Shown here piece after piece: positions 2,353-36,870 of a stretch of DNA of 64,000 nt. The stretch comes from an uncultured Elusimicrobia bacterium (GTDB lineage: Bacteria > Elusimicrobiota > Elusimicrobia > UBA1565 > UBA9628), in the NCBI GenBank assembly GCA_903881545.1, contig CAIRTQ010000048.1:25914-89913 (forward strand), given 5' to 3'. A model generated the notes under the pieces. It was not told the origin of the DNA, did no database searches, and saw only the letters and a list, made by a program, of their open reading frames with translations. How positions within the stretch are numbered: the stretch's first letter is position 1; each line of letters starts with the position of its first letter. The translations under genes were made by a program, and so were the position numbers.

Positions 2353-2930
2353 ACGGGCGCGTAGCGGATATCCTGGCGCAGGTCGCGCTTGTCGCGCTGC
2401 GAGAGGCGGCGCTGGAGAATCGACACGACCTTGTCGTCCACGTTGTGGCGGCCGAGCCAGCGCAATGCCTGAATGACGGTTCTGCTGAGGCGGCCTCTTG
2501 CCGCCATCTGGCGAGGCGTGGTTTTCTTCAATAGGATCGTCCGCCGGCCTATCCGGACCGTCCGCGACCGGCCGTCGGTGAGAAAGACCATCCTCATGGG
2601 CACCTGATCCGAAAGGCCCAGGATGTTGGCTGCGTGCGCGCCGGAAGGCTGCAGGCGCGAGGCATCCCGGCCCTGGAGGGCCGTGGCGATGTCATCGGTC
2701 GAGGGGCTCAAGAGGCCGAGGCGCGGGTCGCGGCGCGGGTAATCGTAGAGGCCGTGGGTGAGCTTGCGAATTTTTCCCGCGCGCGCATTGCGAGAGAGCG
2801 CCTGGTCTACCGCGGCGCGGCTGCCGAGGTCGAGAAAGTCAGCGGGAGTAAAGACATAGCCGGGTCTCCGCCCACGGATTCGAGCCATGATCTGCTGGCC
2901 GATTGAGCCGGAATGTGGTCCTCTGCCCAT
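2304..2930 (-). CDS. abiEi: AbiEi-family antitoxin/transcriptional regulator
   Basis: 208 aa. The N-terminal winged-HTH-like region (GYVFTPADFLDLGSRAAVDQALSRNARAGKIRKLTHGLYDYP) is typical of AbiEi_4. It overlaps abiEii by 49 nt in operon arrangement. Confidence 0.7.
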   Translation of the reverse strand: MGRGPHSGSIGQQIMARIRGRRPGYVFTPADFLDLGSRAAVDQALSRNARAGKIRKLTHGLYDYPRRDPRLGLLSPSTDDIATALQGRDASRLQPSGAHAANILGLSDQVPMRMVFLTDGRSRTVRIGRRTILLKKTTPRQMAARGRLSRTVIQALRWLGRHNVDDKVVSILQRRLSQRDKRDLRQDIRYAPVWVGEVMRRVAAGRSS

Positions 2931-4721: not shown

Positions 4722-5708
4722 ATGGAGACCCTGTTCGAGTCTGACCATATGGCAATGGAGAAGATTAACGGCATCCAGGTCGTCAATCTCTCCGGCATGC
4801 CGTTTGGCAAGGCGGCTGCCCTTTTTGACCAGCGTCTCAAGGCCGAGAAGATCATCCTCCTGCCGGACTTGTGCCCTGGCCGGGGCGCCCTGCCGACAGG
4901 CTGCGCGGTGCTGGTGGACCCGGCACGGGAGCCTGATTGGCGTCGATATGCGGTCTCGGACGTTGGTTGCGGCATCTGCCTGCACTGGTCTTCGCTGGAC
5001 CGGGTCGAATTCGAAAAGCGCAGGCCCTCCTGGGACGCCCTGGCGTCGGATCTGTCCGGCCGGGCCGGGGCGCTGGGCGAACTGGGCGGCGGGAACCATT
5101 TCCTAGATGCCGTTGTCGATGCAGGGCAGCGCGTCGGCTTCGTCGTCCATTCAGGGTCCCGGGACGAGGGGCATGACCTGGGCGGGCTTCTCGCTGCCCC
5201 GGCCCTTTTTGACAGGAGATTCGCGGAGGCCGCGCAATGGGCGGCGGACAACAGGCGGGCGATCGCCGCGGCGGCCACGAGGCGTTTCGGGAAGCTCGAG
5301 TTCGCACTGGATCTGCCGCACAACACCTTTGAGATGGTCGGCGGCAAAGTCCTCATCAGGAAGGGCGCCATGAAGCTGCCTTTTGGCGGGACCGGGCTCA
5401 TCCCGTCGAGCATGGATGGAGACATGGCCTTGGTGGAGGGGAAGCCCGCGATGGCGGAACTTCTGGACAGCATGCTGCACGGCACCGGGCGCATCCTGCC
5501 GCGTGGCCGTGCCAAGATGGCGGCCGCGGATTACGATTTCGCTGGTCTTCGCCGGAAGGTCTACATCCCAGAGGCCATCAAGGACGCATCGCTCAGGACC
5601 GAACATCCCGAATGTTACAGGCCGCTGGATGGGCATCTTCAACTCTTGGAAAGATATTTCGAGATCAAGGGGCGGTTGAAGCCGATCGCTTACATCGGGC
5701 AGGTTTAA
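4722..5708 (+). CDS. rtcB: RtcB-family RNA ligase-like protein (compact, 328 aa)
   Basis: GGGNHFLDAVV, VVHSGSRDEGHDLG and LHGTGRI match the RtcB metal/GTP-binding motifs (GGNHF, HSGSRG, HGAGR). Confidence 0.55.
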   Translation: METLFESDHMAMEKINGIQVVNLSGMPFGKAAALFDQRLKAEKIILLPDLCPGRGALPTGCAVLVDPAREPDWRRYAVSDVGCGICLHWSSLDRVEFEKRRPSWDALASDLSGRAGALGELGGGNHFLDAVVDAGQRVGFVVHSGSRDEGHDLGGLLAAPALFDRRFAEAAQWAADNRRAIAAAATRRFGKLEFALDLPHNTFEMVGGKVLIRKGAMKLPFGGTGLIPSSMDGDMALVEGKPAMAELLDSMLHGTGRILPRGRAKMAAADYDFAGLRRKVYIPEAIKDASLRTEHPECYRPLDGHLQLLERYFEIKGRLKPIAYIGQV

Positions 5709-5717
5709 GGGAGAGTC

Positions 5718-6140
5718 ATGATGCGCGCGCGGAAGACGGGCAGGGTGCGGCGAGACGGGCCGCCGATTTTCCTCAATATAAGCAACCATCCGCTCTCGGA
5801 TTGGCCTCCGGAGCAGGTCCGGGCGGCTTTGCGGCTTGCGCCCGGGGCAAGGCTGGTGGACCTGCCTTTCCCGCAGGTGCCGCCGGAGGCGGGGAAAGCG
5901 GATGTCGCGGCGCTCATGGAGGCCGTTTTGCGCCGGGTCCCGGCTGGGACGACCCACGCGATGGTGATGGGAGAGTTCGCCTTGGCCTTCGCGCTTGTGG
6001 CGCGGCTTGAACGGTTCGGGGTGGAGTGCTTCGCTTCGACTACGACGCGCCGGCCGATGAAGGAGGCTTTCCGATTCGGTCGGTTCAGAAGATACTCCCC
6101 TTTGACGGCGGGGAAAAGAGAGGTCAGGGGTGACAAATGA
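5718..6140 (+). CDS. Small hypothetical protein immediately upstream of cas10 (possible type III accessory)
   Basis: 140 aa with a clean translation (ISNHPLSDWPPEQVRAAL...). Its stop overlaps the cas10 start (6137-6140). Confidence 0.35.
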   Translation: MMRARKTGRVRRDGPPIFLNISNHPLSDWPPEQVRAALRLAPGARLVDLPFPQVPPEAGKADVAALMEAVLRRVPAGTTHAMVMGEFALAFALVARLERFGVECFASTTTRRPMKEAFRFGRFRRYSPLTAGKREVRGDK

Positions 6141-7567
6141 TCCATTATTACTGCTTTGCGGCAAAGGGCATACAAGATTACATCCTACGAGGGGACAGAC
6201 TGCGCCTCATGGTCGGCGGCAGCGAGCTCATCGAGTCCCTGCCTAACAAATTTCTGGCGAGACTGCTCGATGGCCTCGGGCTCAAAGAGCCCTCGGACTA
6301 CGAGATACTCTCCCGCGTGGCCGGCGGAGCCAGGATCATCTTTAAGGAAGGCAAGGATGCCGAGCGGCTTGCGGAAGTCCTGCCCCTGGCGGTCAGCCTG
6401 TACGCTCCCGGGCTCGAGGTGGTGCAGGACTTGCGCCCACTCAACCGTGGGCTGGCTGATGTTATGGCCGATGCCGAGAAAGCCCTCTCCCGCCGGCGCA
6501 GTGTGCTTTTCGCCGCCAGTCCGTCCGCCGGACCGCTGGTCGAGCGCGCCCCGCGCACCGGGCTGCCGGTGGCGGAGGAGTTGCGTCATCGCGGACGCCG
6601 CGAGCCCGCGGACGCCGCCATGCTGGCCCGGGACGGAGCGGCGGACGCGGAGGCGCTCCGGCGCAAGATATACCCGGATAAGGCCATGCGCTTCGCGGAG
6701 AACATCGAGGAGATCGCGGGCGAGCGGGGTTGCGTCGCCGTCCTGCACGCCGACGGCAACGGTCTAGGGCGCGCGTTGAGCTCGCTCCTGAAGGAACTCG
6801 CCGGTCCGGACCAGACGACCGAGCGGTACCGGTCCTTCTGCGCCGCGGTCGATGCTTCGGCCCTCGCCGCTACGCGCGCGGCGCTCGACTGCGCCGATAC
6901 GGGCACGGCCCTGCTGGCGCGGCCGCTGGTGTGCGCGGGCGACGATGTGACGATGATCCTGCGCGGCAAGGACGCCCTTGCCGCTGCCAAAACCTTCCTG
7001 GAAACCTTCGAGAGCGAAAGTCTTGGTCGTCTGGGAAGAGGTCTGACGGCCGCGGCCGGCATAGCCTTCGTCCCGGCCGCTTTCCCGTTCGCTCAAGCCT
7101 ACAGGCTCTGCGAATCGCTCTGCGCCTTCGCCAAAGAAAAAAGCGGCAGGCGCGAATCCTCGCTCGCGTTCTGGAGGGTCACGTCCTCGGCCGCGGAGAG
7201 CTTCGGCGACATCCTCAAGAGCGAGCTCACGGCCCCGGATGGCAATATCCTGACCATGATGCCCTATGGGACAGGCGGCGACCTGCCTTCCGTCGCTGAT
7301 CTGCTCAAGCTGAAGGATGCTGTAGCTGCCATGCCCCGAGGCGGCCTGCGTGGCCTGCTCTCCGACATCTTCGTGGGCCGCGAGGTCGCCCAGCGGGCCT
7401 TTGAGCGCGTCGTGGATGTGGCTAAAGGCCGTGGCAAGGACCAGGACAAGCAGAGGGTAGAGGCCCTGCAGGGCGCGCTCAGCGCGCTGACCCAGGGCGG
7501 GCTCTGGAAAGGCCAGTCCACTCCCCTGCACGACGCCGTCGAACTGCTGGCAGCGGAGGCTTCATGA
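6137..7567 (+). CDS. cas10: Cas10-like cyclase subunit lacking an HD domain (type III-D-like Cas10)
   Basis: The N-terminus starts directly with the palm-domain signature (YCFAAKGIQDYIL...GGSEL). Palm-1 is AVLHADGNGLGRAL and Palm-2 is the GGDD-type LVCAGDDVTMILRG. No HD motif is present. Translationally coupled to the downstream RAMP genes. Confidence 0.65.
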   Translation: MIHYYCFAAKGIQDYILRGDRLRLMVGGSELIESLPNKFLARLLDGLGLKEPSDYEILSRVAGGARIIFKEGKDAERLAEVLPLAVSLYAPGLEVVQDLRPLNRGLADVMADAEKALSRRRSVLFAASPSAGPLVERAPRTGLPVAEELRHRGRREPADAAMLARDGAADAEALRRKIYPDKAMRFAENIEEIAGERGCVAVLHADGNGLGRALSSLLKELAGPDQTTERYRSFCAAVDASALAATRAALDCADTGTALLARPLVCAGDDVTMILRGKDALAAAKTFLETFESESLGRLGRGLTAAAGIAFVPAAFPFAQAYRLCESLCAFAKEKSGRRESSLAFWRVTSSAAESFGDILKSELTAPDGNILTMMPYGTGGDLPSVADLLKLKDAVAAMPRGGLRGLLSDIFVGREVAQRAFERVVDVAKGRGKDQDKQRVEALQGALSALTQGGLWKGQSTPLHDAVELLAAEAS

Positions 7568-8154
7568 ACATGGCAAGATTCTCGGTCAAGGTGGAGATAT
7601 CGTCCTATTGGCACGCCGGCTCCGGCGCCGGAAGGGGGGCGGATGTCGACGCCTTGGTGCTCAAGGGTCGCGACGGCATCCCTTACCTCCCCGGCCGGAC
7701 CCTGAAGGGCCTTCTGCGGGAGGGCATGGCGGTCTGCGAGGAGCTGGGCCACATCAGCCCGGGCCGTACCGATGCGCTTTTCGGCAAGCCGGCTCCGGAG
7801 GGGCGCGGCGACGGCTCGGTCCCAGGAGCCCTGATCGTCTCAGGCGCGGCCCTGCCCGAAGCCGAGCGCCTCTGGCTGGCCTCGAAAGAGGGGCACGGCG
7901 CCCGCGAGGCCCTCTTCGACCGGTTCGCTTCCACCCGCATCAGCGAGGACGGGACGGCCGAGGAGCATACCCTGCGCGCCATCGAGCTGTGCGTCCCGCT
8001 CACCCTGCACGCCGAAGTCGAGGGGCCTCCGGATGCGCAAGCCGACCTGGAGAAGGCCTGTTCTTTCGTCCGAGGGCTCGGCAGCCATCGCAGTCGTGGC
8101 CTCGGCCGCTGCCGCTTGAGCATAGAGGACATCAAGGAGCTTCCCCATGCTTGA
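7564..8154 (+). CDS. Small RAMP protein (Cas7/Cas5 group)
   Basis: YWHAGSGAGRG...IPYLPGRTLKGLLREG (RAMP core) and a C-terminal G-rich loop GLGSHRSRGLGRCRL. Start overlaps the cas10 stop. Confidence 0.55.
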   Translation: MNMARFSVKVEISSYWHAGSGAGRGADVDALVLKGRDGIPYLPGRTLKGLLREGMAVCEELGHISPGRTDALFGKPAPEGRGDGSVPGALIVSGAALPEAERLWLASKEGHGAREALFDRFASTRISEDGTAEEHTLRAIELCVPLTLHAEVEGPPDAQADLEKACSFVRGLGSHRSRGLGRCRLSIEDIKELPHA

Positions 8155-9580
8155 GAAAACCTTCAAGGTCGAACTTCTCTCAGGCGCGGTCGTCACCGCC
8201 GATTCGGCCACGGCGGGCGGACACCGCGGACTTGATTTTCTCCCCGGCTCCGTGTTCCTCGGCGCCGCCGCGGCCCAGGCCCAGCGGGAAGGAGTGTTTC
8301 AGGCCGGATTCTTCCTTTCCGGAGAGGTCCGGTTCCTTGATGCCCTGCCTGACGTCGGAAGCAATCCTTCCTTCCCTATACCCCTGTCCTTCCATCGCGG
8401 GAAGGGCGCGGACTGGGAGGGAAAAACTCCGTGCAATCTGGTCTATGAGGAGCCCCCTGAGGGTGTGCAGGTCCAGCAATGGCGCAGCGGCTACATGAGC
8501 GAGGACGGGCAGGTCCTGCAGGTCGTCCTCGACCACCGCATGAAGACCGCCGTAGACCGCGAGCAGAGGCGCAGCGCGGTGGGACAGCTCTTCGGCTATC
8601 AATCTATTCCCTCCGGCACGGTCCTGCGCATGCGCGTCCAGGTGGAAAAGGCGGAAAACCTCGCCCGGGTTTCAGGATGGTTCGACGGCCACACCATCAG
8701 GGTCGGGAGGTCGCGCTCCGCGGAATACGGGACGGCGCGGCTGACGGCCTTGTCCTCCGGTCCCGAATCTCAGCCTGGCAACGGCGGGGAGCGCCTCGTC
8801 TTGTATCTGGTCTCAGACCTCGCCCTGCTGCGCGATGGGATGCCCTCGCTGCTGCCCGAGGCCAAGGACTTCGGCATCCCCGAAAACGCTGGGTTCGACT
8901 CGGGGAACAGCTTCCTCAGGGCCAGGCGCTATTCCCCCTGGAATTCGTTCTTCAACTGCCGCATGGGTGAGAGGCTGGTGCTTTGCAGGGGCGGCGTCAT
9001 CGCTTTCCAGTTGCCCAAAGGCACTGCCTGCGACCGCGCCGCCCTGCAGAAGCGGCTCGCCTCGGGTGTAGGCCTGAATCGCGAAGAGGGCCTCGGGCAA
9101 CTACTCGTCGACCCGCCATGGCTCCTGAAACCTCCCGTGCTGACCCGTTATCAAGCGAAGGAGCCTCCGGCGCAGGGTATGCCGAAGACGCTGCTTACTG
9201 ATTACCTGAAACGCAAGCACCAGCGGCGCCAGACGTCTTTCGAAGCCTTCAAGACCGGATTGGAGTGGGCGCAGGAGTGGGGCAGGCTGGCTAAACGCGT
9301 GCGGGACGAGCACGGCAAGGCTCCGGGCAAGTCGCAATGGGCCGGCGTGCGCGAGATCGCGGTGCGTTGCCAGACGCAGCCCAACAGCTTGAGCCAGCAG
9401 ATCGAGCAGTTCTGCGGAGAGGCCCTGCGCAGGAAGCTTTGGCAGGCGAAAGCGGGCCGGGGCGGTTCCCTGCTCGACGCGGTGAAGGGAAAGGTGGGCC
9501 TCTCGCCGACGGGAAAGGAATGCCTCGCCCTCTACCACGCCGCCGTGGAGATGGGCCGGCTCATCGGGAGGGGTTCATGA
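8147..9580 (+). CDS. Cas5-group RAMP (Csx10/Cmr3/Csm4-like)
   Basis: N-terminal FKVELLSGAVVTADSATAGGHRGLDFLPGSVFLGAAAA is the typical Cas5-family pattern. Coupled in the operon (stop overlaps the next start). Confidence 0.5.
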   Translation: MLEKTFKVELLSGAVVTADSATAGGHRGLDFLPGSVFLGAAAAQAQREGVFQAGFFLSGEVRFLDALPDVGSNPSFPIPLSFHRGKGADWEGKTPCNLVYEEPPEGVQVQQWRSGYMSEDGQVLQVVLDHRMKTAVDREQRRSAVGQLFGYQSIPSGTVLRMRVQVEKAENLARVSGWFDGHTIRVGRSRSAEYGTARLTALSSGPESQPGNGGERLVLYLVSDLALLRDGMPSLLPEAKDFGIPENAGFDSGNSFLRARRYSPWNSFFNCRMGERLVLCRGGVIAFQLPKGTACDRAALQKRLASGVGLNREEGLGQLLVDPPWLLKPPVLTRYQAKEPPAQGMPKTLLTDYLKRKHQRRQTSFEAFKTGLEWAQEWGRLAKRVRDEHGKAPGKSQWAGVREIAVRCQTQPNSLSQQIEQFCGEALRRKLWQAKAGRGGSLLDAVKGKVGLSPTGKECLALYHAAVEMGRLIGRGS

Positions 9581-10959
9581 AAACGCATCGCTTCGTGGCG
9601 CGGGCGGTCGTCGAATTCACGACGCCGTTCATCGTGGGCGCTTCCCGGGGCGGCGATATCGCTGACGCGGTCTGCGTGACCGACGCCAACGGCCTGCCCG
9701 CCATCCCCGGTTCGAGTCTGGCCGGCGCTCTGCGCGCAGCCTTCCGGCGCGCGGCCGGGCAGGAGGCCGAGAAATCCATCTTCGGCTATCAGGAGAATGA
9801 CGACGGCCGGGGTTCGAGGCTGACCGTGTCGTGGGCCTGCATCCATGACTCGAAGGACGTGCCGGTCGAGGGCATCGCGGCCCCAGAGAGGCTCGCCGAC
9901 GCCGTGCTGGCCAAGGCCATGTGCCCGGCTGTTCGGGACCATGTGCGCATCAGCCACAAGGGTGCCTCGGACAGTGCGGAGCGCGGCAAATTCGACGAGC
10001 AGGCGGTCTGCGCCGGGCACCGGTTCAGCTTCGAGCTCGAGCTGGCCGGCGGCCCAGAGGACGCGACGGCCTGGAAGACGCTCCTTGGACTGCTGAGCGG
10101 AGGCTCCCTGCGGCTCGGCGGCAAGACCCGCCGCGGCTTCGGCGCATTCAAGCTGGTCAGCCTCAGCCTGCGCGACCGCGCTTTCGACCTGCGCAAGGAG
10201 GCCGACTTCTCGGCTTACCGGAAGCATCCCGTGTCCCTAAAAGAGAAGGACAGCCTGCCGTTGACCAAACTGGAGGGAGAAGCCGGCCGGGGCGGCATGC
10301 TGACCGTGCTCCTGGAGCTCACACCCCGGGGCTTCTGGATGTTCGGCGGAGGGCATGACCTCCCTGAAAGCAAGGGAGATGCGGATATGGCTCCGGTGCG
10401 GGATTGCCGCATAGCGTGGGAGGGCGGGAAAGGTGCGGTCGAGGAGGACCTGATTCTCATCCCGGCCGCCTCAATCAAAGGCGCCCTCTCCCACCGCGTC
10501 GCCTTCCATTACAACGCTCTGACCGGGAGGTTCTGCGACAAGGAAAGGCCGGAAGACATCTGCGGCGAGAACAACGGCGCGGTTAAGGCGCTGTTCGGCT
10601 TCGTCAAGGACCAGTCCGGCGGCAGGCGGGGGCGGGTCTTGATCGACGATATCCTGCTCAAGAAGACGGTGGCGGACCAGCTTGTCCACCATGTGGGCAT
10701 CGACCGCTACACCGGCGGGGCCCGTGACCAGGCGCTCTTCTGCGAGCGCCCCCTCTGGGGAGAGAAGCTGGGTATCGCGATCCATGTCAGCGAACCCGAG
10801 GACTTCAAGGACGACGCGGTCAAGAAGGCCTTCGCCCTGGCCTTGGATGACCTCGCCCAGGGACGCCTCCAGCTCGGGGCGGGCTCCGGGCGGGGGGAGG
10901 GCTATTTCGAGGGCAAGGTGGTCTGGCCGAAGGACGCCCGCTGGGGAGGGAAGATATGA
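9577..10959 (+). CDS. Tandem-duplicated Cas7 RAMP (Cas7x2 fusion)
   Basis: Two RAMP cores, each with its own G-rich loop: LPAIPGSSLAGALRAAF then GKTRRGFGAFKL, and ILIPAASIKGALSHRVAFHY then LGAGSGRGEGYFEG. The ATG at 9577 overlaps the upstream stop. Confidence 0.55.
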   Translation: MKTHRFVARAVVEFTTPFIVGASRGGDIADAVCVTDANGLPAIPGSSLAGALRAAFRRAAGQEAEKSIFGYQENDDGRGSRLTVSWACIHDSKDVPVEGIAAPERLADAVLAKAMCPAVRDHVRISHKGASDSAERGKFDEQAVCAGHRFSFELELAGGPEDATAWKTLLGLLSGGSLRLGGKTRRGFGAFKLVSLSLRDRAFDLRKEADFSAYRKHPVSLKEKDSLPLTKLEGEAGRGGMLTVLLELTPRGFWMFGGGHDLPESKGDADMAPVRDCRIAWEGGKGAVEEDLILIPAASIKGALSHRVAFHYNALTGRFCDKERPEDICGENNGAVKALFGFVKDQSGGRRGRVLIDDILLKKTVADQLVHHVGIDRYTGGARDQALFCERPLWGEKLGIAIHVSEPEDFKDDAVKKAFALALDDLAQGRLQLGAGSGRGEGYFEGKVVWPKDARWGGKI

Positions 10960-11423
10960 GTGTCGTCGAACTGCTGGGCAAAGTCGGTTTGAACAAGGAG
11001 GTCGCGGTCTCGATCGGTGGGCTTAAGCGCCACAGCGAGATCGTCAAGACCGCGCAGGATGTCCTGGTCAGGTTTGCCGGATTCGGGGGGGAGGGGTGGC
11101 TCTGTGCCACGGACTCCAAGGAGATCCGGCGCTTTTCACCTGCGGCGCCTCTGCCCGAGCTCAAGGACTGCTGGCCCTTGTGCGCCGAGGCGGTTAAAGG
11201 AGATGAGAGCCTGCATCTTGCGCGCGGCGCCGAGGGATGGATCTTGACCACGCTGCGCCGCGCACTGGGCGAAGATGGGGTTCTTGTGGCTTCGTCCCTC
11301 ATGGCCAAGGACGGCAAGGGCTGGCTCTGCTACGAGACAGCCTGGGAGTCGACCACTGCGGCCGGCCAACGGGAACTGCGGCCGGCGGTTTTCCGGTTTA
11401 CGGGATTTAAGGCGGAGAGGTAA
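10956..11423 (+). CDS. Small effector-operon protein (possibly Csx19 or small-subunit-like; unassigned)
   Basis: 155-aa ORF coupled to both neighbours. No recognisable motifs. Confidence 0.3.
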   Translation: MSVVELLGKVGLNKEVAVSIGGLKRHSEIVKTAQDVLVRFAGFGGEGWLCATDSKEIRRFSPAAPLPELKDCWPLCAEAVKGDESLHLARGAEGWILTTLRRALGEDGVLVASSLMAKDGKGWLCYETAWESTTAAGQRELRPAVFRFTGFKAER

Positions 11424-11426
11424 TCT

Positions 11427-13565
11427 ATGGCTAACGGGTTCAATATGCACGGCGGGCGGCAGGGCGGCGGCGGAAGGCCGTTGAATGGGCCGCAGGGACG
11501 CGGCGGTGGCAATACGCCGATTCCGTCGCCATATAATTTCGTGCCTCTCGCGGACAAGGTCTTCTTCCCGGATTGGGCCGGGCAGGTGTCGATGGACGCG
11601 CCTTTCTCAGACGGCATCAGCGGGCATTTTGACATCAAGGTGACGGCGAAGACACCGGTCTACATCCGCAGCGGCGGAGTGCATCCTGAAAAGCACGAAG
11701 ATCGGCTCAAGGATGCCGGCTACAAGTCCTTCTTTAGGACGCCGGACGGGAAGTACGCCATCCCGGGGACTTCCCTCAAGGGGATGCTCAGGGCGGTGGT
11801 CGAGATCGCATCGTTCGGCAAGATCATCGGGGGGAAATCGGCCCCGCGCGTGGACGACCACCGCTATGCGATGCGGGACCTGAACAACAACAGCTACCGC
11901 GAGCAGTTTACCGAGAACATGGACCCGAAGGTGAAGGCGGCGTGGCTGAGCGCCGATGAGAATGGGGATTGGCAGCTGGCCCTGTGTGATTTCGCCCGCC
12001 CGGAGCAGGAAGACTTGGAGAGGCATTTCGGGCTAGAGAAATTCTCACTGGGAAAGCGTGACCCATCGTCGCCGCAAGATAAATACCAGGCTATCTCGCG
12101 GGAAAACGGTTCTTTGGAGGCATTGAAGTTCGATCGCGGGCCTAGAGACGGATTGGGCAGGAATCCGGCCGTCAATCTCGGAAAGGGGAAGCTTGAGGGG
12201 ACGCTGGTGCTCACCGGACAGCCCATGCCGCGTGACCCGAACAAGACTAGGCGCAAGCACATGGAGTTCGTTTTCTATGGTAAAGAACGGGAATCTGTTC
12301 CCGTTTCGCCTCAACTGAAAGAAGAATTCCAGTTCGTCCATTCCGAGCTGGGTCAGAATCGGAAATTCAACCCGCAATGGACTTACTGGAAGAGCAAGTT
12401 GGATGCCGGCAAGCGCGTGCCGGTCTTCGTCCTTCTGGATGGGCAAGAGAAGATCTCGTCCATGGGGCTGGCCATGATGTACCGCCTTCCGTACAAGTAT
12501 TCCATCCATGAAATGATTGGTCACAGTTTGGAGGAACACAAGAATGCTGAGAGGCTAGACCTGGCTGAGCTGATCTTTGGCCGCGTGGAAGACAAGGACG
12601 CCCTGCGCGGCCGGGTTTGCGTCGAGACCCTGGCCGCCGAAGGCGACCCCAAACCGATGACCGAGGTCAAGACGGTGCTCAGCGGCCCCAAGCCGACCTA
12701 CTATCCCAACTACGTCGAGCAGGATGCCGGTCCTGATGGGGCGTTGCGGGGCGAATACAAGACCTTCATGCATGACGACGCCAAGATCCGCGGCTGGAAG
12801 CGGTACATTGTCAGAAAGGATTCGGAGGACATTCCGAGGTTTGACACGTCGCCCACTGAATCCGTCGCCACCGCGTTCAATCCCCTCCCGGCTGGGACCA
12901 GCTTCACTGGGCGCGTGCATATCCACAACATGAGGCCGCAGGAACTGGGCGCCTTGGTCTGGGCCATGACATGGGGCGGGGACAACAATCTGCGTCACAG
13001 CCTGGGCATGGGAAAGCCATATGGATTCGGCTCTGTGACCGTCGAAATCTCCGGCTATTCTTTGGCATGGTGCGATCCGCTCAAGAGGGATGACATCGAC
13101 ACGGAGGGCATGGGTAAGGAATTCGAGGCGCTCATGCAGAAGGCCGTGCCCTGCTGGCCGGATTCCCCGCAGATCAAGGCGCTCAAGGCCATGGCAAATC
13201 CCGAGACACATTGGCCGCAGGAACTCCGCTATCCGCGCCTTGATAATAATGGGAATAATGAATTCGCCACATTCAAGGGCGCCGGCCTTGCGCCCAAGCG
13301 GGTGCTCGTGCACCCGCCGGGCGGCTCTGTTCCTGCGCCGGCGGTTGCGCCCGGACAAAAGTTCTCTGCAGGTCAAAAGGTGCGCGTCAAGAGTGTGGAA
13401 GATCCAAGGGGGAAGGGGCGCCCTTGGTTTGAAGCCCCCGACGGGGACCAGGGCACCGTTGTCGGCGGCAACGCGCCGGTGGTTGCCATCGGCGAGTATT
13501 GCGAGCTGGAGATTGCATCCTGCAACTCGCCAAAAGGATATAACTTCCGCGTGCCGAGGCGTTAG
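11427..13565 (+). CDS. Large Cas7-family RAMP with a Gly/Arg-rich N-tail and a C-terminal extension
   Basis: PYNFVPL and YAIPGTSLKGMLRAVVEI (RAMP core), plus the G-rich loop GMGKPYGFGSVTVEI. 712 aa. The N-terminus carries GGRQGGGGRPLNGPQGRGGG and there is an extra C-terminal ~120-aa domain. Confidence 0.6.
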   Translation: MANGFNMHGGRQGGGGRPLNGPQGRGGGNTPIPSPYNFVPLADKVFFPDWAGQVSMDAPFSDGISGHFDIKVTAKTPVYIRSGGVHPEKHEDRLKDAGYKSFFRTPDGKYAIPGTSLKGMLRAVVEIASFGKIIGGKSAPRVDDHRYAMRDLNNNSYREQFTENMDPKVKAAWLSADENGDWQLALCDFARPEQEDLERHFGLEKFSLGKRDPSSPQDKYQAISRENGSLEALKFDRGPRDGLGRNPAVNLGKGKLEGTLVLTGQPMPRDPNKTRRKHMEFVFYGKERESVPVSPQLKEEFQFVHSELGQNRKFNPQWTYWKSKLDAGKRVPVFVLLDGQEKISSMGLAMMYRLPYKYSIHEMIGHSLEEHKNAERLDLAELIFGRVEDKDALRGRVCVETLAAEGDPKPMTEVKTVLSGPKPTYYPNYVEQDAGPDGALRGEYKTFMHDDAKIRGWKRYIVRKDSEDIPRFDTSPTESVATAFNPLPAGTSFTGRVHIHNMRPQELGALVWAMTWGGDNNLRHSLGMGKPYGFGSVTVEISGYSLAWCDPLKRDDIDTEGMGKEFEALMQKAVPCWPDSPQIKALKAMANPETHWPQELRYPRLDNNGNNEFATFKGAGLAPKRVLVHPPGGSVPAPAVAPGQKFSAGQKVRVKSVEDPRGKGRPWFEAPDGDQGTVVGGNAPVVAIGEYCELEIASCNSPKGYNFRVPRR

Positions 13566-13567
13566 GT

Positions 13568-14974
13568 ATGGGTTTCCCGCTGTCCGACGGGCAGGTCCTT
13601 AGGTGGCTCACGGGAAAGGGTGACGGTGCTTTTCATGGAGAGATGGCGCAGCGCCGTCTGTGCGCGTTCATCCTTTTCGACCCCCAGCTCGATCCCGACT
13701 TCCTGCGCGGACTCGAATGGGATTTCCGGGAAATGGATCGGCGTACCGGGCGGCATTTCCTCTTCTTCGCCGTCTGCCAGCCGCGACATGAGGAAGATCT
13801 TTCCTTGGCTCGGTATTTTTCAGGGCCCCTGCGGGCGCGTAGGGACCGCTTCTTGAACATGTCTAGCATCCGCACGCTGAACTTCGCGGCGGCGGCCGAG
13901 CTGGGCGTTCCCATGCAAGAACTGCCGTGCATTGTCGTGGCGGAGAGCCTCCTGGCGCGGCATTGCTGGGCTTGCGGGACCGATTCCGGACGACTCATGC
14001 AGCAGATCCTGGAGCTCGATGCGATGGCGGAACACCTGCATTCCGGAGGAGAGCGGGGCGGCTCCCTACAGCTAGTCCTCCGATTGGGCTGCGACGGAAG
14101 TCCTTGGATAAGGCTCCCAGAGGGCCCGCGGAACATTGCGGCCCGCCTTCTTCATTGCTGGAGACTGCTGGAGGATGATGACTATCAGGCGCGATGGCGG
14201 AGAAACCTGCAGTCGGACCTGGCGCAGGCGCGCCGGAACGATTCCCGGGATGCCTCTGATGAGGATGAGGGGATTTCTGAACGGATTTCGAACCTGGGCG
14301 CCCGCATGGCGGCCTGCGCCGCATCGGGCCGGGACTTGGCCGAAGCCCCCGAGTTCGCCGGCGCGGGGCAGCTCGAGCGCGGCGCCGCCATGAACCTGCG
14401 CGCCGCGCGGCTCTGTCTCGATGCCCTTTCCGACGCCGGGATGCAGGAGGATTTTTCAGCCGCGGCGATATGCGCTGGGAAGGCCTTCGAGATAGAGGCG
14501 CGGGCCTCCATGGCGCAATGGATCCGGTCCCGCCACGACATCGGCATGCCTGATTACTTCTGTCGCTGGAAGCCCGGGACGCCGGCCGTGGAGGTCCTGC
14601 CGCCCGCCGGCGGCCGGCACCGCGAGGAGCGTGTGGATTTCAACAAGGCCTTCAACCGCCGATGGTCCGCGCCCACCGTCAACCGCATCAGGGAGGCTTT
14701 TTTCCGCCGTGATGAGAACAATGATACGGCGAAGGAGCTGCGGGAATTCTCTCGGGATGCCCGCGCCGCCTGGAACGTGGGATTGCATGAATTGCTCCGT
14801 CTGCGCAACACCGGCGCCCATGAGCGCGAGTTGAGCCGCGAGGAAGGGGATCAAGCCCTGGCGGTCTCCGGCCGCCTCCTTTTGGATCCGGTTTTTGGCG
14901 GACTGCTGAGGATGAAGTCGAACCTGCGGGGACAGCAAGGCCGCATGAACCAGCCGATTGGCGGGGGGGATTGA
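13568..14974 (+). CDS. HEPN-motif protein (Csm6/Csx1-like C-terminal R-x4-H); N-terminal domain unassigned
   Basis: C-terminal WNVGLHELLRLRNTGAHERELS contains an R-N-xxx-H HEPN-type motif. Stop overlaps the start of the CARF gene. Confidence 0.45.
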   Translation: MGFPLSDGQVLRWLTGKGDGAFHGEMAQRRLCAFILFDPQLDPDFLRGLEWDFREMDRRTGRHFLFFAVCQPRHEEDLSLARYFSGPLRARRDRFLNMSSIRTLNFAAAAELGVPMQELPCIVVAESLLARHCWACGTDSGRLMQQILELDAMAEHLHSGGERGGSLQLVLRLGCDGSPWIRLPEGPRNIAARLLHCWRLLEDDDYQARWRRNLQSDLAQARRNDSRDASDEDEGISERISNLGARMAACAASGRDLAEAPEFAGAGQLERGAAMNLRAARLCLDALSDAGMQEDFSAAAICAGKAFEIEARASMAQWIRSRHDIGMPDYFCRWKPGTPAVEVLPPAGGRHREERVDFNKAFNRRWSAPTVNRIREAFFRRDENNDTAKELREFSRDARAAWNVGLHELLRLRNTGAHERELSREEGDQALAVSGRLLLDPVFGGLLRMKSNLRGQQGRMNQPIGGGD

Positions 14975-15900
14975 TGGGAGTCTGGCATCTCAGCGGCCTG
15001 GGCTTTAGCCCGGGGGCGGTGACCGCGCCGCTGACCAACGTCTATATCGCGGTCGAATGTGCGCGCCGCGGCGACCCTCTGGCCAAAGCTCTGCTGGCTT
15101 GTTCCGGCGAACCTGACAATGCGCAGGAGATCAAGGGCCTCCCGGAAGCTCTGATCTTCTTCACTTCCCCGGAGGTGGCGTCGGGCGCTCTGGCCCCTTC
15201 CAGCTACAGAGACCGCTGGTTCAATACGCAATTCCGGGTCAGCGTCCCGGCCACCATCCTGGCTTATCTTGAAAAGCTCTGCGCAAAGACCGGGCTCAGG
15301 ATGCCGAAGTACATATATGCGGTGAAGACGGATGTCTTCGATTTTCAGGCCTGCTTCAAGCTCGTCTATCTCACCATGCGGGCTTTGACCGACAAGGAAC
15401 TCTGGGTCAACATGACCCCGGGGACCAACTCGTGCAATGCGGCGCTCCTGGCCTGCGCCGGCCTTCAGACGGACGTCGCCCGCTTGTATTATTCAACGAG
15501 CAATCCTCCCGATTTGGCGCATCCGGATGCGGCCCCGCCGAACTGGGGGGACCTGTCGGCCTATCGCCCGCCGCCGACCCCGTGGCACGAATTCCCATTC
15601 TTCAGCATGGGTATGAGCCAGCTGTTTCAAGAGCTACAGAAACGCTTCGCCGCCGGCCAGAGTCTGCATCACAATGAACTGAGTCCCATCATGGAGGGTT
15701 GCGGTTTCGGCGAAAGGATGCTTCCGAAGCTCGCTTCCAGGGATGGGCTTCTTCATTCCGAACCGGGGGACCGATTCTCGCGGGGCCCGGCGTTCTCCGT
15801 GTGGGAGGGCCTCATGACGCTTCCTGATGGCGCCCCCACGGACTTTAGCGCCTGGCGGCGATGGATTGGAGACCGTGCTATCATCTTGCGCCATGAATAG
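14971..15900 (+). CDS. CARF-domain protein (Csx1/Csm6-like sensor, 309 aa)
   Basis: WHLSGLGFSPGAVTAPL matches the CARF N-terminal GxSPG motif. WVNMTPGTNSCNAALLACAG matches the CARF TxGT(K/N)-type ligand-binding motif. A possible Rx5H lies at the extreme C-terminus (RAIILRH). Confidence 0.6.
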   Translation: MMGVWHLSGLGFSPGAVTAPLTNVYIAVECARRGDPLAKALLACSGEPDNAQEIKGLPEALIFFTSPEVASGALAPSSYRDRWFNTQFRVSVPATILAYLEKLCAKTGLRMPKYIYAVKTDVFDFQACFKLVYLTMRALTDKELWVNMTPGTNSCNAALLACAGLQTDVARLYYSTSNPPDLAHPDAAPPNWGDLSAYRPPPTPWHEFPFFSMGMSQLFQELQKRFAAGQSLHHNELSPIMEGCGFGERMLPKLASRDGLLHSEPGDRFSRGPAFSVWEGLMTLPDGAPTDFSAWRRWIGDRAIILRHE

Positions 15901-16681
15901 GATGGGCGGTCGAACGAACGCGCCCGTCATCCCGGCAGCCGAGCGGCAGGTCTTCCTGCGCGCCCTCGAAAACGGGGCCGTGAGCGACTCGTCCGGCGAA
16001 CTGATCCACGGCGCCTTCTTCGCGGCGCTCGCAAGCCGCGACGCCGGGCTGGCAAGGGAGGTCCACGACGGGCCGGTCAAGCCGTTCACCCTGAGCGTGC
16101 TCCAGGCTCCCGAGGGCAGGCCGGCGGAGCGCATCCTCGCTGGCGGCGAATATTGGTTTCGCTTCACGGCCATGGGCCCGAGGGCGGCGTCCTTGTGCCT
16201 GGCCTGGGAGGGGGGGCAGGCCTTGCGCATCGGCCGGATTCGGTTTGCCATAGGCGAGGTCCGGCATCCGGCGGAGGAAGCCGAGGTCCGGGCATCCGGC
16301 GCCTTTGAGATAGAATTCCTTTCCCCGGCCGCGTTCAAATGCGGTGACAGCCACCTTCCCCTGCCCGAGCCGGGCCTGCTCTGGGATGGGCTCGACCGCA
16401 AATGGGCCCTGGCCTCGGGGTCGCCTGGGGAAATGATTTCGGCTGACGCATGGCGGCGGGTGGTGCGCCTGCGGGAGCATGAGCTGCGCACCGTGGCTTT
16501 CCGCCTGCGCGATTGCATCATCCCGGGCTTCGTGGGGCGGGCGGTCTTCGAGACCGACAAGCGGGCGCCCGCGGACCTGCGCTCACGCGCCGCGCGCCTG
16601 GCCGCCTTCGCCCGTATCGCGGGCGTCGGGGTCAAGACCACGGTCGGCATGGGCCAGGTCCGTACGCGCTTGCTTCCGTAG
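15893..16681 (+). CDS. cas6: Cas6 endoribonuclease
   Basis: C-terminal G-rich loop ARIAGVGVKTTVGMGQV. Sits between the effector genes and cas1. The ATG overlaps the upstream stop. Confidence 0.7.
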   Translation: MNRMGGRTNAPVIPAAERQVFLRALENGAVSDSSGELIHGAFFAALASRDAGLAREVHDGPVKPFTLSVLQAPEGRPAERILAGGEYWFRFTAMGPRAASLCLAWEGGQALRIGRIRFAIGEVRHPAEEAEVRASGAFEIEFLSPAAFKCGDSHLPLPEPGLLWDGLDRKWALASGSPGEMISADAWRRVVRLREHELRTVAFRLRDCIIPGFVGRAVFETDKRAPADLRSRAARLAAFARIAGVGVKTTVGMGQVRTRLLP

Positions 16682-16727
16682 ACCCCATTCCGCACTGCAA
16701 CCTCGCGCAGTCCGTGCGCGTTATTTC

Positions 16728-17699
16728 ATGGGGACCATGCCAGCTCTCTACATCCTGGACCAGGGCGCCGCGTTGGGCAAGGAATCCGAGCGCATCGTGG
16801 TGCGCAAGGAGGGCGCCGTCATCGCCGAATTCCCACTGGCCAGGATAGAGAAGGTCCTGCTCTTCGGGGCCGTGCAGGTTTCCACCCAGGCCATCGGCGC
16901 TCTCCTGGAGGCGCGCATCCCCACGGCGTTCTGCAATTACGGCGGCCGCCTGCGCGGCGTGCTGACGCCGGTGGGGGGCAAGAACGTGTTCCTGCGCGTC
17001 TGCCAGGTCCGAAGGCTGGATGATGCGCCCTTCCGGCTGGCCGCGGCCAGGGAGAGCGTCCTGGCGAAGCTCCGCGGCCAGCGCTCCTTCCTGGCGCGGT
17101 CCGAGCGCAACGAGCCCGGCGGCCGCGAGGCGGCCCTGGCCGAGCTCGCGCGGCTGCTCGCGGACGCTGCCGGGGCCGGGGGGATCGGGGTCCTGCGGGG
17201 CGTGGAGGGGCGCGCCGCGGCGGTCTATTTCCGGCAGTTCCCGGGCATGCTGAAATCGGATTGGGGGTTCCCCGGCCGCCGCCGCAGGCCGCCCACGGAT
17301 CCGGCCAACTGCCTTCTTTCGTTCGGTTACGCGGTGCTGACCAACGACGCGGCCTCCCTGCTGGCGGGGTATGCGCTGGACCCGTGCATCGGTTATCTGC
17401 ACGAACTGGACTACGGCAGGCCCTCGCTGGCCCTGGACCTCATCGAGGAGTTCCGCGTCCCGGTGGTGGACCGTACCGTGGTGCGGTTCCTGAACCTGAA
17501 CATGGCGGGAAGGGATGATTTTGAGGTTTTTGAGGATGGGCTTCGCATGACGGATGCCTGTCGGAAGGCCTTTCTGTCCGAATACGAGCGCACTGTGCGG
17601 GATGGCAGACTGCGTGATGCGATGCGCAGACAGATCGAGGCGCTCTGCCAGGCGATATTGGAAGGCAGAGGCTATCATGCCCATCGCTGGGAAGCATGA
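16728..17699 (+). CDS. cas1: Cas1 integrase
   Basis: LYILDQGAALGKESERIVVR...IEKVLLFGAVQVSTQAIGALLEARIPTAF is the typical Cas1 N-terminus. Precedes cas2 and the array. Start chosen at the internal Met of the 16479 ORF. Confidence 0.85.
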   Translation: MGTMPALYILDQGAALGKESERIVVRKEGAVIAEFPLARIEKVLLFGAVQVSTQAIGALLEARIPTAFCNYGGRLRGVLTPVGGKNVFLRVCQVRRLDDAPFRLAAARESVLAKLRGQRSFLARSERNEPGGREAALAELARLLADAAGAGGIGVLRGVEGRAAAVYFRQFPGMLKSDWGFPGRRRRPPTDPANCLLSFGYAVLTNDAASLLAGYALDPCIGYLHELDYGRPSLALDLIEEFRVPVVDRTVVRFLNLNMAGRDDFEVFEDGLRMTDACRKAFLSEYERTVRDGRLRDAMRRQIEALCQAILEGRGYHAHRWEA

Positions 17700-17976
17700 G
17701 CTTCTGGTATTGGTGGTCTATGACATCAGGTCGCCGAAGCGGCTGGCGCGGATGGGCAGGCGCATGAAGGATTTCGGGGTGCGCGTGCAGAACAGCGTTT
17801 TCGAGTGCCGTCTGGCGGTCTCCGAGTATCCGAGGCTGAAGGATGCGGCGCTGAAGATCGTGGACCCGCGGGTGGATTCCCTGCGGTTATACCGGATCTG
17901 CGCGGCCTGCGAAGAGAAGGTGGATTTCCTGGGCGCGGAGGTGCCGGGATTGCCTGACGATGTGCTTGTCCTGTGA
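17677..17976 (+). CDS. cas2: Cas2
   Basis: MPIAGKHELLVLVVYDIRSPKRLARMGRRMKDFGVRVQNSVFEC is the canonical Cas2 fold signature. Overlaps the end of cas1. Confidence 0.8.
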   Translation: MPIAGKHELLVLVVYDIRSPKRLARMGRRMKDFGVRVQNSVFECRLAVSEYPRLKDAALKIVDPRVDSLRLYRICAACEEKVDFLGAEVPGLPDDVLVL

Positions 17977-18200: not shown

Positions 18201-19336
18201 GTCGGAAAGAAGTGACTCCCTGATAAGGGATTGAGACCCGTAACTTCTCTCTCTGTTGCTTCGTCATAGTTTCTCGTCGGAAAGAAGTGACTCCCTGATA
18301 AGGGATTGAGACGGACTTGGCCTGCGCTATGAGACTGCGGGCGAGGGTAGTCGGAAAGAAGTGACTCCCTGATAAGGGATTGAGACCCTCGAACTCGGCG
18401 TCCGATAGGGGGACGATGCCGGTCGGAAAGAAGTGACTCCCTGATAAGGGATTGAGACCGAGTGATAGACATCGACTCGCGCTTGGCGGCTATGTCGGAA
18501 AGAAGTGACTCCCTGATAAGGGATTGAGACCTGGCTTCGGCTCGATATTTAGCGCTCGGTAATGTTGTCGGAAAGAAGTGACTCCCTGATAAGGGATTGA
18601 GACTATCGCCGTGGCGCGCATCTGCGCCAAGGTGGCCGTGTCGGAAAGAAGTGACTCCCTGATAAGGGATTGAGACTTCGAAGAAGCCGCCTGCTTCACC
18701 ACATATCTGACGCGTCGGAAAGAAGTGACTCCCTGATAAGGGATTGAGACGACCCCGTCCGGATCATTACTTGTGTAGCAGTTCATTTGTCGGAAAGAAG
18801 TGACTCCCTGATAAGGGATTGAGACCACGCCGCGCTCGCCGCGCTCCACGCCGCGCTCTCCGCGTCGGAAAGAAGTGACTCCCTGATAAGGGATTGAGAC
18901 TTATTGCCATATAGAAGACCACAGCCGCTTTGATGGTCGGAAAGAAGTGACTCCCTGATAAGGGATTGAGACACCGTCTCGGGCCAGGCCGGATGCTTTC
19001 TCACAAAGGTCGGAAAGAAGTGACTCCCTGATAAGGGATTGAGACCTGGAAAGAGTGTGTTGTCCCCTTGCTATGTCCAAGTCGGAAAGAAGTGACTCCC
19101 TGATAAGGGATTGAGACAAGGCAGAGCCTTCACCGATCCGGACGACGTCCGTCAGGTCGGAAAGAAGTGACTCCCTGATAAGGGATTGAGACGAAGGAGG
19201 CGCGTCTGATTGGGCGTGAACGTGTAGTCGGAAAGAAGTGACTCCCTGATAAGGGATTGAGACTCGCCGCCGAGCCACACGCCGCCGCGCCACTCGCCGG
19301 TCGGAAAGAAGTGACTCCCTTATGCTGTACAGGCCT
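18201..19336 (+). CRISPR. CRISPR array: 15 full copies plus 1 degenerate terminal copy of a 37-bp repeat GTCGGAAAGAAGTGACTCCCTGATAAGGGATTGAGAC, with 34-38-bp spacers
   Basis: Exact repeat copies start at ~18201, 18276, 18350, 18422, 18494, 18567, 18640, 18714, 18789, 18864, 18936, 19009, 19081, 19156 and 19227. A truncated, diverged copy starts at ~19300. The repeat has an internal hairpin (TCCC TGATAA GGGA) and a 3' ATTGAGAC handle-like end. Leader side and orientation are consistent with cas1-cas2 upstream. Confidence 0.95.
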
Positions 19337-25641: not shown

Positions 25642-25658
25642 AATCCCTCCTCAAGGTT

Positions 25659-29167: not shown

Positions 29168-29249
29168 CCAATTTAACCACTTGGACAGAGGAAGTCAAGG
29201 CCATGGTCCTATGTCTCGACGGCAAAGGAGAGGCTTGGATTCCGGTGGC

Positions 29250-29438: not shown

Positions 29439-29441
29439 GGA

Positions 29442-36807: not shown

Positions 36808-36870
36808 ATCATTCCTCCTGCTTATGAAACGGCCCCGGCAGGCGCCAGGTTGCAGTCCGGCGCGATGCTC

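Follow-up and report, generated by a model that had tools for sequence, protein, structure and literature searches.

We analysed a 64,000-nucleotide (nt) stretch of DNA from an uncultured Elusimicrobia bacterium (contig CAIRTQ010000048.1, positions 25,914 to 89,913; the whole stretch is called the window below). An earlier reading of the letters alone, referred to here as the sequence-only reading, had placed a type III CRISPR-Cas effector module at 6137-13565. Our results indicate that 6137-13565 is a type III-D effector operon and part of a complete, apparently functional system. The region very probably encodes a bacterial type III-D interference complex of the 'III-Dv' design of Synechocystis, in which the first Cas7 is left unfused and Cas10 signals through cyclic oligoadenylate (cOA). 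The locus is a new, divergent example of a system that is already known and structurally characterised; it does not represent a new evolutionary intermediate. It is read as a member of a known group because a short Cas10 without HD domain and fused Cas7 proteins are normal hallmarks of type III-D. The effector genes are as follows (aa, amino acids).

6137..7567, plus strand: Cas10 of the III-D type, 476 aa, with Palm1, a linker, Palm2 (HADGNGLG, CAGDD) and a helical C-terminal domain
7564..8154, plus strand: small Cas7, 196 aa, PADLOC Cas7_IIId E 1.4e-44, predicted catalytic residue D29
8147..9580, plus strand: Cas5 (Csx10 type) with a C-terminal Cas11-like domain, 477 aa, PADLOC Cas5_IIId E 1.4e-60
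9577..10959, plus strand: Cas7-2x, two fused Cas7 domains, 460 aa, two Pfam RAMP stretches, predicted catalytic residues D30 and D270
10956..11423, plus strand: Csx19-like small beta-rich subunit, 155 aa, assigned by fold match and gene position
11427..13565, plus strand: Cas7-insertion (TIGR03986 family), 712 aa, with a Gly/Arg-rich N-tail, a split Cas7 core and a C-terminal extension

The effector genes stand in the order Cas10, Cas7, Cas5-Cas11, Cas7-2x, Csx19-like and Cas7-insertion. They belong to a co-directional gene run on the plus strand (4722-17976), in which most starts and stops overlap or come close to touching, with ATGA overlaps at the Csx20/Cas10, Cas10/Cas7, Cas5/Cas7-2x and Cas7-2x/155-aa junctions. 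Downstream of the effector genes follow, in this order, a 468-aa orphan, a CARF protein, Cas6, Cas1, Cas2 and a CRISPR array of 16 repeats. All open reading frames (ORFs) of the effector locus are intact, and the catalytic residues are conserved. The three ORFs named by the sequence-only reading are present where it had put them (6137-7567, 476 aa; 9577-10959; 11427-13565, 712 aa), and its assignment to type III-D was borne out: the hidden Markov model (HMM) typing that it had proposed as a check returned subtype-specific PADLOC III-D models for Cas10, Cas5 and Cas7. The model matches of the three named ORFs are far stronger than chance would give. The small Cas7 (7564-8154), Cas5-Cas11 (8147-9580) and the Csx19-like gene (10956-11423) had been left unnamed.

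Cas10 was matched over its full length by the PADLOC III-D Cas10 models (370-462 positions long, E 9e-62 to 8e-52). Pfam Cas10-Cmr2_palm2 gave 37.6 bits (cut-off 27 bits), and the NCBIfam Cmr2 match was far under its cut-off. The N-terminus, MIHYYCFAAKGIQDYIL, carries the Palm1 'GIQ' motif ('AAKGIQDYIL', GIQ at residue 11). In an alignment with 23 homologues, Q13, the HxDxNGxG pattern of the metal-binding strand (H204-A-D-G-N-G-L-G211) and the GDD of C266-A-G-D-D270-V are all invariant. AGDD (CAGDD) is found throughout the nearer relatives, and GGDD is retained by more distant members. The 23 homologues (468-604 aa) and the Cas10 proteins of Synechocystis and Nostoc all begin at Palm1. No N-terminal HD domain is present; the sole 'HD' dipeptide, H465-D466, was considered and rejected, being part of a conserved LxDA motif at the extreme C-terminus. 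The seven cysteines are scattered without any CxxC pair, so that no zinc finger is present. The Cas10 described by the sequence-only reading, which starts at the palm, has AGDD and lacks both HD domain and zinc finger, was thus confirmed by sequence and homologue alignment. A signalling-only Cas10, as it had proposed, is a reasonable reading of an HD-less protein with intact Palm2 residues in a locus with CARF genes. Such a compact, HD-less Cas10 is real but typical of subtype III-D, in which most Cas10 subunits have no HD domain (PMC11026444).

The Cas10 is nevertheless divergent in size and sequence. It is among the shortest of 60 homologues, several loops being missing, and its closest relative in a protein collection of 5.8 billion clusters is at most 49% identical. 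The Cas10 family profile matched the Synechocystis Cas10 (8S9T_C) end to end (310 bits, E 2e-91, profile positions 5-510). It matched the archaeal III-D Cas10 of 8BMW (829 aa) with E 2e-6 and gave no match to the III-D2 Cas10 of 9WXH.

The small Cas7 and Cas5-Cas11 are encoded by separate ORFs with an 8-nt overlap, and the Cas7-Cas5-Cas11 triple fusion is not present. With phmmer, Cas5 aligned with residues 269-593 of 8S9T_A (E 6e-10). With hhalign, its profile (built with eight orthologues) aligned with residues 250-688 of the Synechocystis Cas7-Cas5-Cas11 at 99.5% probability. The published linker between Cas5 and Cas11 in the Synechocystis fusion is K602-T624. The alignment extends past this linker into the Cas11 domain, and the 8147-9580 protein is therefore a Cas5-Cas11 fusion. 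The comparison with Csx10 and Csx19 profiles proposed by the sequence-only reading succeeded only in part: the Csx10 model TIGR02674 matched Cas5 weakly (E 3.7e-4), under its cut-off, and the Csx19 model TIGR03984 found no match.

Cas7-2x starts with the ATG of an ATGA overlap with the upstream stop. It contains two Pfam RAMP stretches (E 1.6e-35), matches the 426-position PADLOC Cas7_IIId model end to end (E 5e-111), and has 8S9T_D, 'Cas7-2x', as its best PDB match. These results confirmed the two-core Cas7 fusion claimed at 9577-10959. D29 of Cas7 and D30 and D270 of Cas7-2x align with D26, D33 and D246 of Synechocystis.

The last effector gene encodes a Cas7-insertion protein, which matched TIGR03986 with 310 bits (cut-off 161 bits) over residues 35-589, PADLOC Cas7_IIId (insertion type) with E 1e-140, and 8S9T chain E by sequence. 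The 177-position Csm3 model is spread over residues 71-537, and a large insertion therefore splits the Cas7 core. The N-tail (residues 1-34) contains 12 Gly and 3 Arg. Residues ~590-640 are conserved among relatives, whereas the last ~70 aa (~640-712, window 13347-13565) are unique to this protein and show a sub-threshold similarity to TRAM_2, a small RNA-binding beta-barrel (E 0.014). The claim of a 712-aa Cas7 with an RGG-like N-tail and an added C-terminal part was therefore correct, the protein being a TIGR03986 member with a Gly/Arg-rich tail. Among the relatives of Cas7-insertion, the C-terminal tails are unrelated, mostly helical and of variable length, and several of these proteins also have low-complexity N-tails in which G, R, N or Q abound. 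The suggested comparison with Cas7x3 and Cas7-11 had a mixed outcome. Cas7-insertion is similar to Cas7-11 (PDB 8D97, E 1e-11), but there is no Cas7x3, and the gRAMP model NF041225 (E 9e-15) matched in fragments only, with 45-53 bits against a cut-off of 700 bits.

The 155-aa protein encoded between Cas7-2x and Cas7-insertion had no HMM match in Pfam, NCBIfam or PADLOC, and hhalign against the Nostoc Csx19 was negative. Its AlphaFold2 model (predicted local distance difference test, pLDDT, 85.9) was compared with the PDB by Foldseek. The only significant matches were 8S9U_B and 8S9T_B (probability 1.0, template modelling (TM) scores 0.56 and 0.50), and the next matches had TM ~0.17. Chain B of 8S9T is Csx19, since chains A, C, D and E are Cas7-Cas5-Cas11, Cas10, Cas7-2x and Cas7-insertion. 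The gene occupies the position of the annotated csx19 in Nostoc and Synechocystis, and a natural fusion of the Csx19-like protein with Cas7-2x exists in one relative (P0117, 647 aa). Clustered at 50% identity, the family comprises at least 295 clusters (E<=1e-10 for 128), and none of 32 sampled members matched any NCBIfam model. When seven syntenic small proteins were scanned with NCBIfam, Csx19 (TIGR03984) was returned for Nostoc alone and TIGR04423 for three others. The small subunit at the csx19 position thus falls into at least three mutually unrecognisable sequence families across III-D loci (TIGR03984, TIGR04423 and the present one). Since no Pfam, NCBIfam or PADLOC model covers the present family, automated typing misses this core subunit.

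The closest characterised system is III-Dv of Synechocystis sp. PCC 6803 (pSYSA CRISPR2; 8S9T/8S9U; Schwartz et al. 2024, PMC11026444), which has the same subunit set and gene order, with the Csx19-like protein here in the place of Csx19. Its operon reads cas10, cas7-cas5-cas11, cas7-2x, csx19, cas7-insertion (PMC11026444; pSYSA annotation). The best PDB match of each subunit studied here is the corresponding 8S9T chain; four of the five protein chains (A, C, D and E) were matched by sequence and chain B by fold only. In both systems Cas10 starts from Palm1 without a working HD domain, there are four Cas7 domains with three conserved aspartates, and the surroundings include Cas6, Cas1, Cas2, CARF accessory genes and a CRISPR array. 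The two also differ. Cas7 is fused in Synechocystis but encoded by a separate gene here, where the fusion is limited to Cas5-Cas11. The Synechocystis Cas10 has 558 aa, a Palm1 insertion and GGDD, whereas ours has 476 aa (~80 aa shorter), no insertion and AGDD. Csx19 has 186 aa there, and its counterpart here has 155 aa and is unrecognisable by sequence. The Synechocystis Cas7-insertion carries a 112-aa N-terminal domain in contrast to the short Gly/Arg tail and unique C-terminal tail found here. Pairwise identity between the two sets of proteins is ~25%.

The unfused state of Cas7 is shared with other III-D loci. We compared eight syntenic loci (L002, L003, L005, L007, L011, L012, L013 and L014). 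The identical six-gene order was observed in Nostoc sp. ATCC 53789 pNsp_a, Photobacterium toruni pCECT9189-1 and Wenzhouxiangella sp. XN79A, as well as in metagenome-assembled genomes of Gammaproteobacteria (two) and UBP6 (one). The two loci with the closest Cas10 relatives, one of which an uncultured Dethiosulfovibrio carries on a contig of 2.9 Mb, also share this order, with per-protein identities of 42-58%. Across the loci with unfused Cas7, protein sizes are alike (Cas10 ~520-610 aa, Cas7 ~195-220, Cas5 ~490-540, Cas7-2x ~460-500, small protein ~130-190, TIGR03986 protein ~600-790), while identities range from 25 to 58% and the accessory genes vary. The suggestion that this locus is an informative intermediate was not upheld, since HD-less Cas10 and Cas7 fusions are the published III-D norm, existing PADLOC and NCBIfam models cover them, and the same order occurs in at least eight other genomes. 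In the Dethiosulfovibrio locus (L013, 17811-21572), an MJ1673/Csx20 gene directly follows the III-D operon, and after it come genes matching RAMPs, Cmr2_N plus Cas10-Cmr2_palm2 (397 aa) and Cas_Cmr3, apparently another type III effector module, of III-B type, back to back with the III-D operon.

Subtype III-D also includes the system of Saccharolobus solfataricus (8BMW; PMC9945777), the basis of the 'III-D1' schematic of Makarova et al. 2025. The Palm regions of its Cas10 are distantly alignable with ours (E 2e-6), but that protein has 829 aa with ~310 extra N-terminal residues, and the similarity is far weaker than to 8S9T. III-D1 is defined by four separate cas7 genes together with cas10, cas5, cas11 and csx19, unlike the present locus with its Cas7-2x.

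The mechanism proposed here is drawn by homology to the characterised III-Dv complex, with gene content, gene order and residue conservation read from the present locus. That complex contains one copy per subunit, holds a 37-nt CRISPR RNA (crRNA) and cleaves at three sites that depend on aspartates; the cOA made by its HD-less Cas10 activates Csx1 (PMC11026444). By analogy, the six proteins, in one copy each, would gather on a crRNA processed by Cas6 and bearing the 8-nt 5' tag AUUGAGAC. The four Cas7 domains would form the backbone, and the insertion domain would cap the crRNA 3' end. The complex would bind a complementary transcript and cut it at three sites, spaced by 6 nt, through the predicted catalytic residues D29 of Cas7 and D30 and D270 of Cas7-2x. 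A target without anti-tag complementarity would activate the Palm domains of Cas10 (D206, G268-D269-D270), which would then make a nucleotide second messenger, judged from the locus content to be most likely cOA. Two proteins would sense the messenger, the CARF protein at 14971 and the beta-CASP-CARF7 nuclease at 22247. No DNase arm is expected because Cas10 has no HD domain. We favour cOA because there are two CARF genes in the locus, no CorA was found among the scanned ORFs, and Cas10 is close to the cOA-making Synechocystis enzyme. A prediction of the messenger from the Palm1 acceptor motif was tried and dropped: the residue that corresponds to D253 of L. lactis and E8 of III-D2 is not diagnostic. 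At this acceptor-site position (residue 8) our Cas10 has Ala, and Glu stands in the Synechocystis enzyme, which makes cOA, as well as in the III-D2 enzyme, which makes S-adenosylmethionine-AMP (SAM-AMP).

The effector genes are accompanied by adaptation genes, a CRISPR array and several accessory genes.

4722..5708, plus strand: RtcB-family protein (Pfam RtcB), 328 aa (short), first gene of the cluster, probable accessory
5718..6140, plus strand: Csx20/MJ1673-family accessory protein, 140 aa, PADLOC Csx20 E 4e-18
13568..14974, plus strand: orphan 468-aa protein, starting 2 nt after the Cas7-insertion stop, with a C-terminal RNTGAH (413-418)
14971..15900, plus strand: CARF-domain protein, ~309 aa, PADLOC CARF3 E 9e-53, Csx1 E 2e-28
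15827..16681, plus strand: Cas6, TIGR01877 67.7 bits (cut-off 58.65), PADLOC Cas6
16479..17699, plus strand: Cas1, PADLOC Cas1 E 2e-87, homology from about residue 90 of the ORF
17554..17976, plus strand: Cas2, PADLOC Cas2 E 2e-22, homology from about residue 51 of the ORF
18201..19336, plus strand: CRISPR array with a 37-nt repeat (GTCGGAAAGAAGTGACTCCCTGATAAGGGATTGAGAC) in 15 identical copies and a degenerate terminal one
22247..24709, plus strand: fusion of a beta-CASP/MBL ribonuclease with CARF7 (APE2256), 820 aa, matched by Pfam, NCBIfam and PADLOC CARF7 (E 5e-35)

The array has a leader upstream and spacers of ~35-38 nt, and the 3' end of its repeat, ATTGAGAC, is the predicted 8-nt 5' tag of the crRNA. 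The true start of Cas6 is probably downstream of 15827. The RtcB-family protein matched Pfam RtcB with E 1.2e-19 (71 bits, cut-off 27), and the NCBIfam RtcB models stayed well under their cut-offs. Speculatively, it could reseal RNAs whose 2',3'-cyclic phosphate ends are made during the response. The stop of the Csx20/MJ1673 gene overlaps the Cas10 start in ATGA, and PF27247 MJ1673 is on record for the same gene on another contig.

The beta-CASP-CARF7 fusion is a probable cOA-responsive accessory effector and a candidate cOA-regulated RNase. Its N-terminal MBL/beta-CASP domain resembles IntS11/CPSF73 (E ~1e-39) and the type VII Cas14 in the PDB; the CARF7 domain matches the CARF protein 8PHB and is followed by a C-terminal region of ~120 aa without assignment. 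We met no description of a beta-CASP-CARF fusion in the literature searched. The 468-aa orphan has one homologue (88% identity) among the 5.8 billion clusters searched, and its AlphaFold2 model, made from a two-sequence alignment, was unusable (pLDDT 34). With its sub-threshold HEPN_Swt1 and DUF4145 matches, it may be a new HEPN-type effector. The 'several CARF/HEPN genes' of the sequence-only reading are therefore two solid CARF genes, the HEPN part resting on an RNxxxH motif and sub-threshold Pfam matches in this orphan only.

Beyond the array lie two genes for CHAT proteases and their neighbours.

~19356-21140, plus strand: PCMT-CHAT, a fusion of a protein-L-isoaspartate-methyltransferase-like fold, which binds S-adenosylmethionine (SAM), with a CHAT protease, directly after the array
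21143-22114, minus strand: p323, a 323-aa ORF with weak sigma-70 region-4 similarity, convergent with PCMT-CHAT
24823-30998, minus strand: apparent operon of a ClpX-like AAA+ ATPase, p463, TPR-CHAT and p272 (272-aa unknown)
25659-27779, minus strand: TPR-CHAT, 706 aa, beyond the array, ~12 kb from the effector genes and on the opposite strand

The ClpX-like ATPase (518 aa) has a ClpX core and a different N-terminal 170 aa, and p463 is a 463-aa ORF with weak sigma-70 region-2 similarity. This minus-strand operon loosely recalls the protease and sigma-factor modules of III-E and III-B systems, and it is not conserved beside related III-D loci.

Several observations weigh against the proposed III-Dv-like, cOA-signalling complex. 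By sequence, the 155-aa protein falls outside both Csx19 (TIGR03984) and TIGR04423, and its assignment as Csx19-like rests on a fold match (TM ~0.5) and gene position. The CARF protein at 14971..15900 has no recognisable effector domain and no Rx4H motif in its sequence; its 468-aa neighbour is an uncharacterised protein. In the clade of this Cas10, the Palm2 motif is AGDD instead of GGDD, and the predicted activity is read from conserved residues. The identity of the messenger is not readable from sequence, cOA being the most likely one, and the related HD-less Cas10 of III-D2 makes SAM-AMP (PMC13294483).

The last point leads to an alternative that keeps the effector as proposed above but has its AGDD-type Cas10 produce a messenger other than cOA, such as SAM-AMP, as in III-D2 and in the III-B system of B. 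fragilis. In this case the sensor might be a protein without CARF; one example is PCMT-CHAT, directly after the array, through its SAM-binding-fold PCMT domain. The related compact, HD-less III-D2 Cas10 makes SAM-AMP as well as SAM-AMP2 (PMC13294483), and the Palm1 sequence AAKGIQ has no counterpart of the Asp in the DMSGVQ motif of the cOA-making L. lactis enzyme. We consider this alternative unlikely: the locus has two CARF-domain genes, and the scanned ORFs yielded no CorA, NrN or SAM-AMP lyase. Moreover, the Cas10 family profile covers the cOA-producing Synechocystis Cas10 from end to end and does not match the III-D2 SAM-AMP synthase chain, and the acidic residue for SAM recognition (III-D2 E8) is replaced by Ala at position 8. 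Hardly credible is the idea that the 'Cas10' is in fact a nucleotide cyclase of an unrelated kind, GGDEF or another, an outcome that the sequence-only reading had itself named as a refutation, or that the locus is a decayed remnant. Although Palm2 is the sole Pfam domain above cut-off, with a modest 37.6 bits, and NCBIfam Cmr2 lies far below its cut-off, the III-D Cas10 HMMs match at full length (E ~1e-61), the family profile gives 310 bits with a solved III-D Cas10, and the gene heads a six-gene effector operon conserved in many genomes. A remnant is contradicted by the intact ORFs, the conserved catalytic residues and the 15 identical array repeats.

The sequence-only reading had further called the module III-D2-like, a possible step towards type III-E, and had mentioned TPR-CHAT. 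On such a reading, TPR-CHAT would work with the effector as Csx29 does with Cas7-11. III-D2 systems have cas7-cas5 and cas7x3, no csx19 or cas11, and CorA with a toxin-antitoxin (TA) module (PMC13294483; bioRxiv 10.1101/2022.06.13.496011). The III-D2 system of Gammaproteobacteria bacterium HyVt-522 (9WXH; Mitsuda et al. 2026, PMC13294483) does share with ours a compact HD-less Cas10 of the same layout (Palm1, linker, Palm2, Cas11-like C-terminal domain) and a TIGR03986-family terminal Cas7 domain that bears an insertion. In contrast, the Cas7x3 and Cas7-Cas5 fusions found there do not exist here: the Csx19-like gene stands between the separate genes for Cas7-2x and Cas7-insertion, Cas7 has a gene apart from that of Cas5, and a Cas11-like domain is present. 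The CorA and VapBC-like TA module of III-D2 were not seen either: CorA was not found in the ORFs scanned across the window, which did not cover every small ORF, and the only TA-like pair among them is AbiEi/AbiEii, upstream. Nor did we see the other III-D2 traits, namely a single RNA cleavage site, SAM-AMP plus SAM-AMP2 and a GGDE motif. Since the locus departs from III-D2 on each of its defining points, we place it with the III-Dv-like bacterial III-D systems.

Type III-E itself (Cas7-11/gRAMP with Csx29, the Craspase) resembles our locus in its four Cas7 domains, its Cas11 domain and its similar insertion-bearing last Cas7, and the C-terminal Cas7 region of Cas7-insertion is common to Cas7-11. 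In addition, the TPR-CHAT and PCMT-CHAT genes lie within 12 kb of the effector genes, the CHAT domain of TPR-CHAT is weakly similar to Csx29 (E 2e-11), and sigma-70-like ORFs adjoin both CHAT genes, loosely like the Csx30/RpoE module of III-E. Even so, a III-D2-like form en route to III-E is quite unlikely. III-E is a single polypeptide without Cas10, Cas5, Cas6 or Csx19 and signals via the bound protease Csx29, which replaces Cas5 and Cas10 (PMC13294483), whereas here the proteins are encoded by separate genes, both Cas5 and Cas10 are present, and TPR-CHAT is not a Csx29 equivalent. TPR-CHAT scored 43 bits with the Csx29 model NF041237 (cut-off 300 bits), in the CHAT domain only, and gave no sequence match in the PDB, although the PDB holds Csx29 structures. 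The gene is past the array, on the opposite strand and in its own apparent operon with the ClpX-like ATPase, and it is absent from all eight related III-D loci. Sixteen metagenomic relatives of TPR-CHAT align in the CHAT domain only (29-36% identity); none stands beside III-D genes, and they are uninformative on linkage. A pairing of TPR-CHAT with the effector, at which the sequence-only reading had hinted, was thus not supported.

The CHAT genes flanking the array (PCMT-CHAT and the ClpX-like/p463/TPR-CHAT/p272 operon) might be wired to the III-D effector, directly or via the messenger, though we regard this as a long shot: coupling is conceivable in a defence island, but no observation speaks for it. 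If such wiring were true, one crRNA-guided complex would drive both CARF nucleotide signalling and a Craspase-like proteolytic arm, and the locus would form a living link from III-D to III-E. In a lesser version of this idea, the methyltransferase-fold domain of PCMT-CHAT would respond to a SAM-derived messenger produced by the AGDD-clade Cas10.

The first ~39 kb of the window is a defence island, which contains, besides the CRISPR locus, the following genes.

1285-2930, minus strand: AbiEi/AbiEii toxin-antitoxin pair (abortive infection), PADLOC E 1e-69 and 9e-103
32665-33753: DUF2201 metallopeptidase/VWA-like gene
35479-38127: IetA-like AAA genes

Housekeeping genes make up the rest of the window (Mrp antiporter subunits, phosphoketolase, Lon, trigger factor and two tRNAs), and an Rfam scan of the whole window returned the two tRNAs only. 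A 25-nt sequence, GGATTTTAACCGGACAGGAGGGTTT, occurs in two exact copies 50 nt apart at 31279-31353, just upstream of an ORF starting at 31352.

In conclusion, our results place this locus as one more divergent example of bacterial III-D, a group for which structure and basic biochemistry already exist, and in this respect it opens no new question. Its fusion state, with Cas7 separate and with Cas5-Cas11 and Cas7-2x fused, is one step short of the Synechocystis design. The unfused-Cas7 state is widespread, and the published 'progressive fusion' series is therefore populated by common and not by rare forms. The accessory set, including the beta-CASP-CARF7 fusion, the 468-aa orphan and the two CHAT proteases, could be mined for new cOA-responsive effectors, and the locus exposes a sizeable Csx19-like family outside current models.

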